A stretch of 4,211 bases of DNA from a virus (IMGVR_UViG_2671180637_000009); one strand, 5' to 3'; counted from the first letter of the stretch, positions 1 to 4,036 are shown. Program-made: numbers and translations. The notes: generated by a model not told the origin, from the sequence alone.

Positions 1-1661
1 GCAACGCCGTCAGGAACACGGCTCACTTTCACCTTCACGCCGTCGGTGACGGACTGGACCTCCACGCTGACCGGATTACCCTCACCGTCAACCAGGCTTA
101 TCAGCGTGGTGCCGGAGGATGGCAGCGTGATTTCACGGTCGAGCGTCAGCGTCCGGGTCTGGCTGTTTACCGCCAGCACGCGCCCGCCGATGCTGATACC
201 GGCATAGTCATCATCACAGATTTCAATGACATCGCCCGGCACATGGCGAAGCCCTTCTGCGCCCACGCTGAAGTCCACGGTCTGCGTTTCCAGCAGTTCT
301 GTTTTAATCAGCCACAGCCCGGCGCGGTGTGCCTGCCCCCGGCTGGTACAGCCAAAGGCATCCATCTTCGTGACGTTACGACCGTAACGGGCAATGGCCT
401 GCGTGTCCTCCACAAGCTCTGTCGCCGTCTCCCAGCCGTTGTTCGGGTCAATCCAGTTCACCTCAACGGCATTATGGCGGTCCTTCAGGGCGCTGAAGCT
501 GTAGCGGAACGGCGCGCCATCATCCGGCATCACCACATTACTGCGGTTATAGGTCCACACCTTATCTGACTGTCGGTCCTGCACGAACGTCAGCGTCTGC
601 CCGTTCCATACCGGCATACAGCGCATCGCCGAGCAGAAATCACTGAGCACATCCCACGCCTTGCGCTGTGTGGTCAGGTACGCATTACAGGTAATGCGCG
701 GCTCCGTGCCGCCAAAGCCGTCCGGCACCGACTGGTCGCAGTACTGGCCGATGACATACAGCGCCCATTTGTCCACATCCGCCGCACCAAGACGTTTCCC
801 CATGCCGTAGCGTGGATGGGTCAGCATATCCCACAGACACCAGGCCATGTTGTTGCTGTATGCCGGTTTAAACGTTCCGTCCCAGATACCGCTGTATTGC
901 CGCGTCTGCGGGTTATAGTTCGACGGCACCTGCAGAATACGCCCGCGCAGATGATAATTACGGCTCACCTGCTGGCTGCCGAACTGCTCCGAATCCACCT
1001 GTACGCCGACCAGTGCCGTGTTCGGGTAGCACTGTTTCACATCGATGATTTCGGTGTATGACGACCAGAGCGTTTTGTTCTGCAGCTGGTCTGTGGTGCT
1101 GTCCGGCGTCATCCTGCGCATCCGGATATTGAACGGGCGCGGCGGCAGGTTATCCACCACCACCGAGGCCAGATACTGTGAAGTGGTTTTACCCTTAATG
1201 GTGATGTCTTTTTCCGTCACCCAGCCACCGTTACGCTGTATCTGAACCAGCAGGCGGACTTCCGACGGATTCCGGTCCCCCTTTGAGGTGGTTTCCACCA
1301 GTGCCTGCACACCGAAGGTAAAGCGCAGACGGTCGATGTTTGCAGACGTGATGGTCCGGGTGATCGGCGTGTCATATTTCACTTCCGTACCCAGCACCGT
1401 CTCGGAACCGGAGGATTCAAATCCCTCCGGCGGAGTCTGCTCCTGCTCACCGGCCCGGAACACCACCGTGACGCCGGAGATATTGGTATTCCCCTCACTG
1501 TCCAGCACCGGCGTACTGTTCAGCAGCACGCTTTTTAACCCATCCACCGGACCTTCAATCGGCCCTTCGCTGATGGCATCGATCACACTCAGCAACTGCG
1601 TGGACTTCAGGTTGTCCTTCGCTTCGCGAGGGGTATGCCCCTTACTGCTGCCTTTACCCAT
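1..1661 (-). CDS. J: Tail tip / host-specificity protein J (central tail fibre), N-terminal ~553 codons; 3' end lies beyond position 1
   Basis: Minus-strand ATG at 1661..1659 (plus-strand 'cat'). Translation begins MGKGSSKGHTPREAKDNLKSTQLLSVIDAISEGPIEGPVDGLKSV... and stays open to the window edge, matching the lambda gpJ N-terminus as I recall it. No stop in this frame, so the track did not list it. GGAG Shine-Dalgarno 8 nt upstream. Confidence 0.93.
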   Translation of the reverse strand, partial: MGKGSSKGHTPREAKDNLKSTQLLSVIDAISEGPIEGPVDGLKSVLLNSTPVLDSEGNTNISGVTVVFRAGEQEQTPPEGFESSGSETVLGTEVKYDTPITRTITSANIDRLRFTFGVQALVETTSKGDRNPSEVRLLVQIQRNGGWVTEKDITIKGKTTSQYLASVVVDNLPPRPFNIRMRRMTPDSTTDQLQNKTLWSSYTEIIDVKQCYPNTALVGVQVDSEQFGSQQVSRNYHLRGRILQVPSNYNPQTRQYSGIWDGTFKPAYSNNMAWCLWDMLTHPRYGMGKRLGAADVDKWALYVIGQYCDQSVPDGFGGTEPRITCNAYLTTQRKAWDVLSDFCSAMRCMPVWNGQTLTFVQDRQSDKVWTYNRSNVVMPDDGAPFRYSFSALKDRHNAVEVNWIDPNNGWETATELVEDTQAIARYGRNVTKMDAFGCTSRGQAHRAGLWLIKTELLETQTVDFSVGAEGLRHVPGDVIEICDDDYAGISIGGRVLAVNSQTRTLTLDREITLPSSGTTLISLVDGEGNPVSVEVQSVTDGVKVKVSRVPDGV

Positions 1662-1669
1662 TCCTCACG

Positions 1670-1673
1670 CTCC
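1670..1673 (-). promoter_or_regulatory. Shine-Dalgarno (GGAG) for J, 8-nt spacer; a second GAGGA sits immediately before the ATG
   Basis: Minus strand reads ...TTTATGGAGCGTGAGGAATGGGTAAA...; the GGAG is plus-strand 'ctcc' at 1670-1673. Confidence 0.6.
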
Positions 1674-1703
1674 ATAAACGACAAAACCGCCCGCAGGCGG
1701 TTT
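1671..1703 (-). terminator. Intrinsic-terminator-like hairpin in the I-J intergenic region (perfect 8-bp stem, 4-nt loop, then a U-rich tract on the coding strand)
   Basis: Plus strand 1684-1703 is aaaccgcc-cgca-ggcggttt, a perfect inverted repeat. On the minus (sense) strand it reads AAACCGCC UGCG GGCGGUUU followed by UGUCGUUUAU. Lies 19 nt after the I stop and ends ~10 nt before the J ATG. Confidence 0.5.
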
Positions 1704-1721
1704 CACATAAAACATTTTGCA

Positions 1722-2363
1722 TCAGCGACCAATCACCACAACCTGACCACCGTCCCCTTCGTCTGCCGTGCTGATCTCCTGAGAAACCACCCGCGACCCC
1801 ACGCGCATTTCACCGTACAGAACGGGCAGAACATTGCCCTGGGCAACCATGTTATCCAGAGAGGAGAAATAGGTGTTCTGCTTACCGTTATCCGTGGTAC
1901 TGGCTGTTGCTGTGCTGGCTTTCGGTGCCAGCATCTGTGCAACACCACCAAGTGTCATCGCCGCGCCCATTGAAAAGAGAATGTCACTGAAAGCGATACT
2001 GATTCCTGGCATCCAGATTGCCGTAGCAATCAACGCCGCACCCAACACCGCCTGAAAAACACCGCTACTTTTGGCTCCCGCAAGACGCGGAACGATGTGG
2101 ATCACTGCACCATTTGCCAGCGGCTCACTAAGACGGGATGATAATTCGTTTTCGCCTGCATCATGCCCGGCAATGCGTACCTGGTACCAGCCGTCGCTCA
2201 GTTTCTGACGAAACGCCGGAAGCTGTGTGGCCAGCGCCCGGATGGCTTCAGCACCCGTTTTCACACGAAGGTCGATGCGGCGGCCAAATCGTTGTAAATC
2301 CCCGTAAAGGCAGATGCGTGCCATGCCCGGTGACGCCAGAGGGAGTGTGTGCGTCGCTGCCAT
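1722..2363 (-). CDS. I: Tail tip assembly protein I (213 aa): N-terminal ubiquitin-like domain, central hydrophobic Gly/Ala-rich segment
   Basis: Track ORF 1722..2363 (-). Begins MAATHTLPLASPGMARICLYGDLQRFGRRIDLRVKTGAEAIRALATQLPAFRQKLSDGWYQVRIAG and ends ...EISTADEGDGGQVVVIGR, as I recall for lambda gpI. Start ATG at 2363..2361 lies inside the 3' end of K. Stop TGA at 1724..1722. Confidence 0.9.
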   Translation of the reverse strand: MAATHTLPLASPGMARICLYGDLQRFGRRIDLRVKTGAEAIRALATQLPAFRQKLSDGWYQVRIAGHDAGENELSSRLSEPLANGAVIHIVPRLAGAKSSGVFQAVLGAALIATAIWMPGISIAFSDILFSMGAAMTLGGVAQMLAPKASTATASTTDNGKQNTYFSSLDNMVAQGNVLPVLYGEMRVGSRVVSQEISTADEGDGGQVVVIGR

Positions 2364-3004
2364 TTGTCGGTATACCTCTCTCGTTTGCTCAGTTGTTCAG
2401 GAATATGGTGCAACAGCTCGCCGTCACCACAGTAAATGGCGGCATGATTCGGCACCGATGAACCAAAACAGCACAGCAGCACATCGCCCGGCTGCGCCGC
2501 TGACAACGGCACCTGATACAGCCCCGTTGCCTCCAGATTATCCAGATAGAGATTCTGACCGTTACGCCACCAGTCATCCTCACGATGAAAATCCGGCATC
2601 TCAATCCCCGCCAGATGGTAAGCGTCCCGGAACAGCGTGTAACAGTCCGTCACCCCGTGCTCAAAGCGCCGCCCGGTAAGATGCGGCACACAGCGGAACT
2701 TGTGAATCGCCCCCCGGCAGACCAGCCACCACGGCAAATCACTCTGCACCTGCAGCCGCCGGTCAGCCTCACTCAGCCAGGGCAGACCACCGGGATGACT
2801 GTGGACCAGCGCCACAATCTCACCCTGCATTTCTGCCTGCAGCCAGTCCTCCGGAGCCATCCGGAAATAATCCTCCGGCTCACCGGAAATATTCACGCAG
2901 GGAAAATATCTTTCCCCCTCCGGCGTTCTCACCACGAAGCCGCACGACTCCGCTGGCGCACATCGCCGGGCGTGCGCCAGAATCGCTGATTCTGTCTCTG
3001 TCAT
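2261..3004 (-). CDS. K: Tail tip assembly protein K, 247-aa form (JAB/MPN metalloprotease-like N-domain plus NlpC/P60-like C-domain); the classical lambda annotation starts internally at 2860 (199 aa)
   Basis: Track ORF 2261..3079 (-). I place the start at the ATG at 3004..3002 (MTETESAILAHARRCAPAESCGFVV...), 4 nt after the L stop. JAMM motif HSHPGGLPWLSEAD (HxH-x7-S-x2-D) at residues 68-81, with the candidate catalytic Glu at residue 19 (PAESCG). NlpC/P60-like Cys (TDCYT) and His (NHAAIY, LLHHIP) in the C-terminal half. The internal ATG at 2860 (MAPEDWLQ...) has GGAGGA 10 nt upstream. Confidence 0.85.
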   Translation of the reverse strand: MTETESAILAHARRCAPAESCGFVVRTPEGERYFPCVNISGEPEDYFRMAPEDWLQAEMQGEIVALVHSHPGGLPWLSEADRRLQVQSDLPWWLVCRGAIHKFRCVPHLTGRRFEHGVTDCYTLFRDAYHLAGIEMPDFHREDDWWRNGQNLYLDNLEATGLYQVPLSAAQPGDVLLCCFGSSVPNHAAIYCGDGELLHHIPEQLSKRERYTDKWQRRTHSLWRHRAWHASAFTGIYNDLAAASTFV

Positions 3005-3008
3005 GGGA

Positions 3009-3707
3009 TTACTGCGAAAGTTTGTTAATGGAAAGGAAGCCGCCAAAGTTGCCGACGTTATTGCGGAACTTACAGCCACTCAGGCATTTGCTGCATTTAT
3101 CCTTCGTGATATCGGACGTCGGCTGGTCATATTCATCCGCGACAGCCGGACCGCTATAACCGCACTCGTCACCGCGATAGGTCCAGGTGCAGGTGTTGGC
3201 CAGCATGATACGTCCCGGAAAAACAGCGCCATCCGTTTCCGTCGGCGTGGACAGTACAAAGGAGGCACTCACCGCGCTCAGTTCGCTGCACTGCTCGATG
3301 CGCCAGCGGCTGATCACCTCCTGCTCCGGATCGGCGTCACTGTTTCCGTTGACGAAGTTCACCGCATCCAGAAAACGGGCGTAAACCTTACGCCGGACCA
3401 CCGTTCCGCCGACCAGACTCTGCAGATCTTCCGCCATCCCGGTGACCATACCGTACAGGTTAGAAACCGTCAGCGTGGGGCGCGTACTGGTGCCTTTGCC
3501 ATTCAGTTCAAAACCGCTCCCCTGAATGGGATACGGCTGATACTGTCGCCCCTGCCAGGTGACCGGCTCACCTTTTTCGTTCTGCTCATTACAGAAAAAA
3601 TAACGTTCTCCACCGACCTCTGTCAGGTCGATTTCCCAGAGCACCACGCTGGCCGACTGCTCCGCACGGGTGCATTCATTCAGTGTTTCCTGCCGGATAT
3701 CCTGCAT
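3009..3707 (-). CDS. L: Tail tip protein L (232 aa) with a C-terminal cysteine cluster
   Basis: Track ORF 3009..3707 (-). MQDIRQETLNECTRAEQSASVVLWEIDLTEVGGERYFFCNEQ...SINKLSQ matches lambda gpL as I recall it. Its ATG (3707..3705) overlaps the M stop TGA (3709..3707) as TGATG. Stop TAA at 3011..3009. Confidence 0.95.
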   Translation of the reverse strand: MQDIRQETLNECTRAEQSASVVLWEIDLTEVGGERYFFCNEQNEKGEPVTWQGRQYQPYPIQGSGFELNGKGTSTRPTLTVSNLYGMVTGMAEDLQSLVGGTVVRRKVYARFLDAVNFVNGNSDADPEQEVISRWRIEQCSELSAVSASFVLSTPTETDGAVFPGRIMLANTCTWTYRGDECGYSGPAVADEYDQPTSDITKDKCSKCLSGCKFRNNVGNFGGFLSINKLSQ

Positions 3708-4036
3708 CAGTTCACCACCTGTTCAAACTCTGCGCTGAACTCAACACGCAGCATACTGACCCGCGACGACCATTTTGCGCAGGTCACCTTTATCTGCCTG
3801 TAACCATAAGGCGGCGTCCACAGAAAGGCCTTCCAGCCCCCGTGCTCAGCCAGAAACGACTCCAGTACCGTGGCCTCCTCACGGGGGACAGAAAGCGTCA
3901 CGCTGTACGTTTTCAGGTTGGCATTCAGCCCGGCAGGCGCTCGCTGGGAATAGCCATCACCAAAGCGCACCTTTCTTACAGAAGGGACCGAAGCCACATC
4001 CATACCGGGTTTCACTTTCCAGCGGAAGGTCTTCAT
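3707..4036 (-). CDS. M: Tail tip protein M (109 aa)
   Basis: Track ORF 3707..4036 (-). MKTFRWKVKPGMDVASVPSVRKVRFGDGYSQRAPAGLNANLKTYSVTLSVPREEATVLESFLAEHGGWKAFLWTPPYGYRQIKVTCAKWSSRVSMLRVEFSAEFEQVVN matches lambda gpM as I recall it. Its ATG (4036..4034) overlaps the H stop TGA (4035..4033) as ATGA. Confidence 0.95.
   Translation of the reverse strand: MKTFRWKVKPGMDVASVPSVRKVRFGDGYSQRAPAGLNANLKTYSVTLSVPREEATVLESFLAEHGGWKAFLWTPPYGYRQIKVTCAKWSSRVSMLRVEFSAEFEQVVN

Follow-up and report, generated by a model that had tools for sequence, protein, structure and literature searches.

A conserved terminator-like hairpin between tail genes I and J of lambda-type phages

Introduction

The late operon of bacteriophage lambda is the textbook case of processive antitermination. 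Q-type modification makes RNA polymerase resistant to intrinsic terminators across the whole of this pR' late operon, to which the tail-module genes I and J belong. The terminators inside the operon that Q-modified polymerase must overcome have hardly been catalogued. Stem-loops between cistrons can also stabilise the upstream mRNA, as the REP element between malE and malF does. Terminators internal to late operons do exist in lambdoid phages, where they have been proposed either to terminate partially or to stop transcription that is not antiterminated, and published commentary calls the roles of such intra-operon terminators unknown (PMC8022706). The same source cites Yin et al. (2019) for the read-through of intrinsic terminators by Q-modified polymerase. 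Morons, on the other side, are defined as bearing their own promoter and terminator (PMC3594210), and those of HK97 and HK022 are flanked by terminators (Juhala et al. 2000, as summarised in PMC3594210). Intra-operon phage terminators and moron-flanking terminators are both, then, recognised kinds of element. The junction between I and J is not discussed in the lysogeny transcriptomics paper or in the StxS Term-seq paper, and the paper that reuses lambda ribosome-profiling data gives no per-gene values.

Here we analyse a stretch of viral DNA of 4,211 nucleotides (IMGVR_UViG_2671180637_000009), called the window throughout, in which a hairpin separates I from J. To what is known of these kinds of element, our analysis adds that lambda's I-J site is under selection, that it has counterparts in no fewer than five other J-bearing clades, that cargo genes recur next to it and that it is one of five terminator-type sites in the lambda late operon. 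The recurrent cargo slot and the membership in this set of five were absent from an earlier annotation made from the nucleotide sequence alone, hereafter the sequence-only reading.

Results

The I-J spacer in a lambda-type tail module

A six-frame ORF list and a Pfam scan identified the window as a lambda-type tail module, H'-M-L-K-I-J', with all genes on the minus strand (Table 1). Megablast matched it to lambda 12925-17165 with 96.7% identity over 95% of the window length, and the uncovered part is a mosaic patch inside I, away from the I-J junction. Within this patch (approximately 1953-2164) identity to lambda is 0.41-0.70 and a 30-nt indel is present, with flanks at 0.96-0.99; as a result, I has 213 residues in the window and 223 in lambda. 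We considered and rejected the possibility that the hairpin described below marks a mosaic boundary, since the patch inside I is the sole divergent one between the window and lambda and the spacer itself is 0.96-0.99 identical. K and I overlap at 2261-2363 in different frames, an arrangement also found in lambda, and the K frame read from the ATG at 3004 encodes 247 residues with JAB and NlpC/P60 domains, where the original lambda record gives K 199.

J starts with the ATG at 1659-1661 and is represented by its first 553 codons, after which the window ends (lambda J begins at 15505). The gap between I and J is exactly 1662-1721, 60 nt long and equivalent to lambda 15445-15504. It is indeed, as the sequence-only reading had it, the only sizeable intergenic gap: in the ORF list every other junction overlaps or leaves at most 4 nt. 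Apart from the J ribosome-binding site, no feature is annotated at this gap in the classic lambda record, the lambda imm434 record or RefSeq E. coli genomes. The six-frame listing gave no ORF in the 60-nt spacer, the promoter scan no promoter-like site in or near 1662-1721, and the Rfam 15 covariance models no match to the window at E <= 1; on the loci of six relatives Rfam returned just two sub-threshold chance hits (L132 and L030). No match to the hairpin outside prophage contexts appeared in the searches run, and it is much shorter than a REP element.

Lambda-like sequence also occurs under other names. MW057783.1, 'Campylobacter phage CJLB-4', matches the window at 12844-17085 with the same identity and coverage as lambda and is probably lambda, not a Campylobacter phage; MG065670, 'Campylobacter phage A121', has a coliphage-like J. 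Short, low-coverage contigs labelled Bacillota, Streptomyces, Shewanella, Bradyrhizobium, Corynebacterium and others carry a J 98-100% identical to that of lambda (loci L006, L011-L022, L024, L025, L027, L030, L033-L048 and others). A lambda-like J on assemblies of unrelated bacteria is almost certainly contamination with lambda control DNA.

Table 1. Coordinates of genes and junction elements in the window, and of sense-strand hairpins in lambda (lambda positions refer to J02459, survey locus L344)
Feature	Position	Strand	Basis or remarks
End of gene H		(-)	overlaps M by 4 nt
M	3707-4036	(-)	PF05939; M/L overlap 1 nt
L	3009-3707	(-)	PF05100; L/K gap 4 nt
K	2261-3004	(-)	JAB + NlpC/P60; K/I overlap 103 nt
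I, tail tip assembly protein I, 213 aa	1722-2363	(-)	PF06805 Lambda_tail_I, E = 5.4e-23; lambda homologue 14773-15444
I stop codon TGA	1722-1724	(-)	ORF list
J, 5' part, tip attachment / host specificity protein	1-1661	(-)	PF24801 FNIII-A_GpJ, PF13550
A/U-rich 5' part of spacer, UGCAAAAUGUUUUAU	1707-1721	(-)	varies within the lambda clade, unrelated between clades (39 distinct 60-nt spacers; alignments)
Hairpin	1681-1706	(-)	inverted repeat, fold, RNAalifold
Perfect 8-bp stem, AAACCGCC / GGCGGUUU	1696-1703 / 1684-1691	(-)	100% complementary, arms 4 nt apart
Loop UGCG	1692-1695	(-)	
GC core of hairpin	1687-1700	(-)	
Three flanking G.U/U.G pairs, extending the stem to 11 pairs	1704-1706 with 1681-1683	(-)	
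Interrupted U-rich tail, UGUCGUUUAU	1674-1683	(-)	sequence; nT = 3.81, d = 18.6
J Shine-Dalgarno GGAG, 8 nt before ATG	1670-1673	(-)	sequence; lambda RBS annotation
Lambda D-E hairpin, sense, with T tail	6101-6114		
Lambda E-FI hairpin, sense, with T tail	7164-7179		
Lambda I-J hairpin, sense, with T tail	15466-15479		
Lambda J-lom hairpin, sense, with T tail	18920-18935		
Lambda lom-stf hairpin, sense, with T tail	19613-19632		

A stable sense-strand hairpin next to the J ribosome-binding site

Read as sense (minus-strand) RNA, the J-proximal part of the spacer has the order GUG-AAACCGCC-UGCG-GGCGGUUU-UGUCGUUUAU-GGAG-CGUGAGGA-AUG. A CCGCC/GGCGG stem core is extended by A-U and G.U pairs, closed by a UGCG loop of the UNCG type and followed by a U-rich tract, which reads UUUUGUCGUUUAU when the stem's own UUU is included. 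The hairpin measures 20-26 nt and its stem begins 16-21 nt past the I stop codon. The perfect 8-bp inverted repeat, its UGCG loop and the tail that follows were described correctly in the sequence-only reading; one detail has to be amended, in that the U-tract had been said to overlap the J Shine-Dalgarno sequence and in fact abuts it. The equivalent bases in lambda, 15493-15496, are annotated as a ribosome_binding_site in the lambda imm434 record OM418626. Folding gave a stable structure both for the 35-nt core (-15.2 kcal/mol, z = -3.55, with 1 of 200 shuffles as stable) and for the full gap of 60 nt (-21 kcal/mol, z = -3.17, with none of 200 shuffles as stable). The antisense RNA reaches -12 kcal/mol and ends merely in UUUCACAU, without a U tail, which agrees with the poorer U-tract originally ascribed to that strand.

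The minimum free energy structure of the 60-nt spacer also contains an extended lower stem, in which spacer nucleotides 7-16 pair with 46-55 so that GGAG would be masked, and the mean unpaired probability of the Shine-Dalgarno window is just 0.17-0.21 (window and lambda). Control of J translation by such masking, one form that the modulation of J initiation proposed in the sequence-only reading could take, is nevertheless very improbable in our view. The lower stem is rich in G.U pairs, lambda-clade variation breaks its pairs without compensation (A.C in 9 spacers, U.C in 6, C.A in 5), and in other clades the 5' flanks are unrelated and the Shine-Dalgarno windows are 0.46-0.68 unpaired. These observations weakly contradict a structure that modulates J initiation; as a general mechanism we rejected masking, since the lower stem has neither compensatory changes nor a counterpart in other clades.

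Terminator scoring calibrated on lambda

The rule-based terminator scan omits the I-J site, which we attribute to the G.U extension of the stem, leaving 4 T in the 8-nt tail window. We therefore used a length-normalised score instead, calibrated on lambda, that combines hairpin energy per length with weighted T in the manner of d'Aubenton-Carafa. By this score, whose formula may depart in detail from the published scheme, the I-J site with its tract UUUU-G-U-CG-UUU-A-U reaches d = +18.6, and no other place on the two strands of the window scores positive as a terminator-type site. Terminator prediction, to which the sequence-only reading had looked for a check, thus favours the site on the normalised score and passes over it in the rule-based scan.

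Applied to lambda 1-19,700, the same score gave six positive sites in the sense orientation and none in antisense. Five of the six occupy the gaps of 40 nt or longer, of which there are five (D-E, E-FI, I-J, J-lom and lom-stf), together 1.4% of the sequence scanned (binomial P ~3.5e-9); the sixth, at 4487-4502, lies inside gene C (19.7 kb scanned). Over the whole lambda genome 17 sites were found, 17 of 17 co-oriented with local transcription. Several stand at positions that we take to be those of tR2 (d = 25), t_oop (29.6), tL1 (22.4), t_imm (19) and tL3 (8.3), and the I-J score lies within the range of 8-30 spanned by the sites matching known lambda terminators; bulged terminators, for example tR' and tI, are missed by the scan. 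The I-J hairpin therefore belongs to a small group of terminator-type elements within the late operon of lambda, and its score is typical of working lambda terminators.

Conservation of the stem and of the U-rich tail

Public phage records, IMG/VR contigs and GTDB genomes supplied the I-J junctions; as the spacer we took the interval between the I-type ORF and the J start, with boundaries set by an ORF-length heuristic. The element is common: it was found in 4,181 of 5,426 complete E. coli genomes (~77%), in 8,206 copies, with a median of two per positive genome. Among 39 distinct 60-nt spacers of the lambda clade, variable columns amount to 2 of 20 in the stem versus 19 of 40 outside it (Fisher p = 0.004). 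Both stem changes preserve pairing, one turning C-G into U.G and the other U.G into U-A, and the loop occurs in four variants (UCCG, UGCG, UCAG and UGUG). Prophages of the lambda, Gifsy-2 and Citrobacter types have unrelated 5' flanks and keep the core ACCGCC-loop-GGCGGU together with the tail. RNAalifold, run on a 50-sequence alignment of these three types, returned the same 11-pair stem; pairing held in 92.7% of cells, and in no more than 63% once the partner was slid. Four pairs have changed on both sides, for instance from A-U to G-C, and locus L216 shows a double change from CCGCC/GGCGG to CCACC/GGUGG. The covariation score was reached by none of 500 shuffles, a comparison which, like the other shuffle statistics, does not amount to a probability, the surveyed sequences being related and recombining; covariation of the stem, another check proposed in the sequence-only reading, is present. 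Each T position of the tail is either invariant or conserved to 90% or more, and the intervening G, C and A vary. Two defective prophage copies in which gene I is disrupted have decayed stems. Judged from these substitution patterns, the stem is under purifying selection. Support for the rho-independent terminator architecture first seen on the sense strand comes from several sides: the fold, the strand bias, the conservation with its compensatory changes, and a score in the range of sites that match known lambda terminators.

In seven Citrobacter-type variants a T-to-C change produces a perfect 11-bp stem and spoils the U-tract (d < 0), which looks like selection on the stem, not on termination. 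Such variants, trading the U-tract for a longer perfect stem, fit the main rival to a terminator, namely a purely mRNA-stability or processing element: the stem would block 3'-to-5' exonucleases after endonucleolytic cuts and so protect the upstream tail segment or cap the 5' end of the J segment, and termination would be irrelevant. The stability and conservation of the stem suit this explanation equally, and the lambda D-E and E-FI hairpins follow the most abundantly made head proteins, as differential stability would have it. Moreover, Q-modified polymerase should ignore a terminator, so that any role in the lytic phase would have to be post-transcriptional. An exonuclease barrier, on the contrary, has no need of a tail conserved at its T positions or of the canonical T6-T9 tracts of HK022-type, T1-like and ES18-type phages; all sites are strictly sense-oriented and score among known terminators; and I and J are low-copy products without evident need for differential stability. 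We regard a stabilising element as rather unlikely and still as a live rival: the 3' stabilising stem of the sequence-only reading gains from the variants with a longer stem and a spoiled U-tract, and loses from the conserved T tail.

Terminator-type sites before J in other clades

A sense-strand hairpin followed by a T-tract precedes J also in HK022/HK97-type, Stx, T1-like and some ES18-type phages. Across seven clades, 127 of 136 distinct I-J spacers of 40-100 nt carry a sense-strand site and 1 of 136 an antisense one, with none expected from shuffles. The distance to J is generally 15-25 nt, and ~41-56 nt in Stx and T1-like phages. The HK022/HK97-type phages, whose J N-terminus is ~35% identical to that of the window, have GGCCACC-UUCG-GGUGGC and then 6-9 U's at 15-18 nt before J in 50 of 53 distinct spacers, and most HK022-type relatives have just a 52-54-nt spacer bearing the hairpin. 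Stx-phage relatives carry a strong ACAGGCACCC/GGGUGCCUGU hairpin with UGUUUUU, 41-50 nt before J, and T1-like lytic phages a canonical terminator-type site in 14 of 15 spacers. The ES18 clade is polymorphic: the I-J junction is 9 nt long and hairpin-less in 73 of 80 loci, and all five distinct spacers of 43-45 nt have canonical terminator-type sites 19-20 nt before J, built on two unrelated stems. Canonical T6-T9 tracts were found in HK022/HK97-type, T1-like and some ES18-type spacers. Erwinia phage Midgardsormr38 and Salmonella phage Kenya-K19 have no I-J spacer. Taken over these clades, a spacer at the I-J junction almost always comes with a sense-oriented, terminator-type hairpin. Since most ES18-type loci have a hairpin-less junction, the hairpin is not needed to express J.

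These junctions also bear on the proposal, made in the sequence-only reading, of an attenuator that sets the dosage of J during lytic growth. A fraction of Q-modified polymerases would stop at the hairpin, leaving J, lom and stf mRNA below the level of M-L-K-I. Lytic T1-like phages, in which we know of no Q-type antitermination, have a strong terminator-type site in the same gap, as an attenuator would predict. However, J and the tip proteins of the upstream genes are needed in equal copy number, and Q modification confers resistance to intrinsic terminators over the late operon. Furthermore, spacer and hairpin are both missing from those 73 of 80 ES18-type loci, so that a lower J dosage cannot be a general requirement. 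Terminator architecture is present at the site, and partial termination is among the roles proposed for intra-operon terminators (PMC8022706); we nonetheless think a lytic attenuator improbable, and a role in J dosage finds no support where most phages of the ES18 type make J from a 9-nt junction.

Several Stx relatives (L003 963-1202, L004, L243, L251, L255 and L263) have I-J inserts of 235-245 nt, in which a hairpin with an antisense T-run stands right after I and a strong sense terminator-type site 41-50 nt before J. No convincing ORF or Rfam match was found in these inserts, which could be an undescribed small RNA gene. The EHEC prophage sRNAs of Tree et al. (2014) were considered as candidates and rejected, since they map to the PR' moron site and not to I-J. 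Likewise, a terminator-promoter pair in the T1-like phage SH6, with TATAAT 3' of the terminator, is not claimed, as the promoter scan calls nothing there.

A recurrent cargo slot upstream of the hairpin

Long I-J spacers, of 198-879 nt, are low-GC inserts (0.33-0.51 versus 0.49-0.60 in the flanking genes), and relatives with spacers of 318-879 nt bear extra genes in the I-J slot. The cargo includes the gene for a periplasmic Cu/Zn superoxide dismutase, sodC (PF00080), on the opposite strand and in two J clades, lipoprotein-like ORFs on either strand, and in HK022 the genes 22 and 23, annotated by its authors as moron gene products; loci L063 and L112 have a 477-nt insert in the slot. The sodC loci (L196, L228, L245 and L258) have I-J spacers of 691-851 nt, and the Stx-clade sodC versions have lost the pre-J hairpin. 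Despite upstream cargo, be it sodC, lipoprotein genes or HK022 22/23, the hairpin mostly stays on the J side of the spacer, and in most cases cargo gives way to conserved sequence at the 5' base of the stem. In L172 and L173 (318-nt spacer) the boundary lies elsewhere: in the 45 nt that precede J, unrelated sequence has taken the place of the 5' arm and the 3' arm and tail stay, in the arrangement GGTTCACTTCA-TTCG-GGCGGTTTTGTTG, which suggests a recombination joint inside the hairpin.

Compared with a moron, the spacer of the window contains no extra gene and no promoter of its own, and it has a terminator-type site at its downstream end; the hairpin stands where HK022 and the lipoprotein-cargo variants have their moron-distal terminator. 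With a terminator-type site and neither gene nor promoter, it is best described as an empty slot, not as a moron.

A cargo hot spot invites the view that the hairpin has no present function, being either what remains of the terminator of a cargo gene since lost, or a DNA-level recombination joint for cargo exchange. The cargo boundary at its 5' base, and inside it in L172/L173, agrees with this view, as do the presence/absence polymorphism and the two unrelated hairpin sequences of the ES18 clade. Yet the stem is under purifying selection when compared with the remainder of its spacer (p = 0.004), and the substitutions in it leave the pairs intact. In defective prophages it has decayed, and strict sense orientation with a T tail is the signature of an RNA- or transcription-level element and not of a DNA-level one. 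Given this signal of selection on the stem, a neutral relic is unlikely, and we consider a functionless relic or DNA-level feature quite improbable overall.

The same boundaries could mean instead that the hairpin has been selected as an 'insulated docking site', that is, a standing terminator before J, at the downstream edge of the cargo slot in many siphovirus lineages, which would let captured genes (sodC, lipoproteins, exclusion genes) be expressed in the lysogen without transcribing J. It would perhaps also promote capture through recombination at or within the hairpin, and the junctions at the 5' stem base, and inside the stem in L172/L173, hint at this last part. We rate selection as a docking site as unlikely.

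Discussion

The reading that we favour, with confidence about evenly divided for and against, is that the element is an intra-operon intrinsic terminator of the rho-independent type, directly upstream of the J ribosome-binding site, which would stop polymerase lacking the Q modification and be read through by Q-modified polymerase. A role at the level of transcription is suggested by the sense orientation, the conserved T tail, the canonical T runs of sister clades and the placement downstream of cargo. Polymerase without Q modification might arrive by leak past tR', from spurious starts or, in a prophage, from the promoters of cargo genes. The hairpin would then form in the exit channel and the transcript be released at the U-tract, keeping J and the genes downstream silent outside the lytic programme. 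During lytic growth Q-modified polymerase would pass and the site be nearly silent. Where polymerase reads through, the stem probably remains in the mRNA as a barrier to 3' exonucleases, which would be a secondary role. The element would act as an accessory 'punctuation mark', dispensable for making J.

On translated late mRNA, a closely trailing ribosome may suppress termination further, so that the site would act preferentially on untranslated transcripts. Lambda tR2, studied with reporters, had an efficiency of 0.12-0.8 when placed 17-18 nt from the stop codon, and its full activity needs more than 27-30 nt (PMC4824070). As the I-J stem begins 16-21 nt past the I stop codon, this effect of distance suggests that a ribosome finishing I may damp the site in the same manner.

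Several observations weigh against a terminator. Moron-free lambda offers no obvious source of unmodified polymerase on which the site could act; the T's might be conserved for the sake of the ribosome-binding region of J instead; the U-tract is interrupted and the rule-based scan rejects the site; and the seven Citrobacter-type variants spoil the U-tract. The element is widespread and maintained and coincides with a hot spot for fitness and virulence cargo such as sodC. As an insulator, it would explain how cargo is expressed from within a silent tail operon, and it would offer phage engineering a compact, natural and Q-bypassable terminator. If inactive, it would be a well-controlled case of a hairpin whose conservation has to be explained in some other way.

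The closest described elements are the terminators inside the late operons of phage L and P22-like phages (PMC8022706), which are likewise predicted and lie between co-transcribed virion genes served by a single, Q/gp23-antiterminated promoter. The same roles, partial termination or the stopping of transcription without antitermination, have been proposed for the phage L site as are considered here, and both sites are predictions. They differ in place: the phage L site ends the procapsid module of a podovirus, whereas that of the window belongs to the tail-tip module of siphoviruses. For the window site, unlike the phage L site as described, we find conservation in several clades and a position at a cargo slot.

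The I-J slot of HK022 has the layout of the window, with morons 22/23 followed by AGCCACC-TTCG-GGTGGCT-TTTTTTATGG 17 nt before J. HK022 has in addition a second hairpin after moron 20, just before its I homologue (L138 315-334), AAACCACC-TACG-GGTGGTTT-TTTTATGG, with the tail also given as TTTTATGGGG; in RNA form, AAACCACC-UACG-GGUGGUUU-UUUUAUGG, it nearly duplicates the lambda I-J layout and stem. In contrast to HK022, the window and lambda have the terminator-type hairpin with no gene or promoter in the slot. Most HK022-type relatives carry a hairpin-only spacer as well, which argues that the hairpin is the default state and not just part of a moron.

The lambda terminators tR2, t_oop, tL1, t_imm and tL3, their names presumably matching the coordinates, resemble the I-J site in having a short stem rich in GC, a small loop and a T-rich tail, and in being co-oriented with transcription. 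Their activity has been measured, and they stand within or at the end of early transcripts, whereas the I-J site is predicted and its tail is interrupted after four U's. A REP element is, like the I-J hairpin, a stable hairpin between cistrons of one transcript that could block 3' exonucleases. REP sequences, however, are longer, form a host-wide repeat family and require no U-tract, whereas the I-J hairpin is 20-26 nt long, phage-specific and followed by a conserved T-rich tail.
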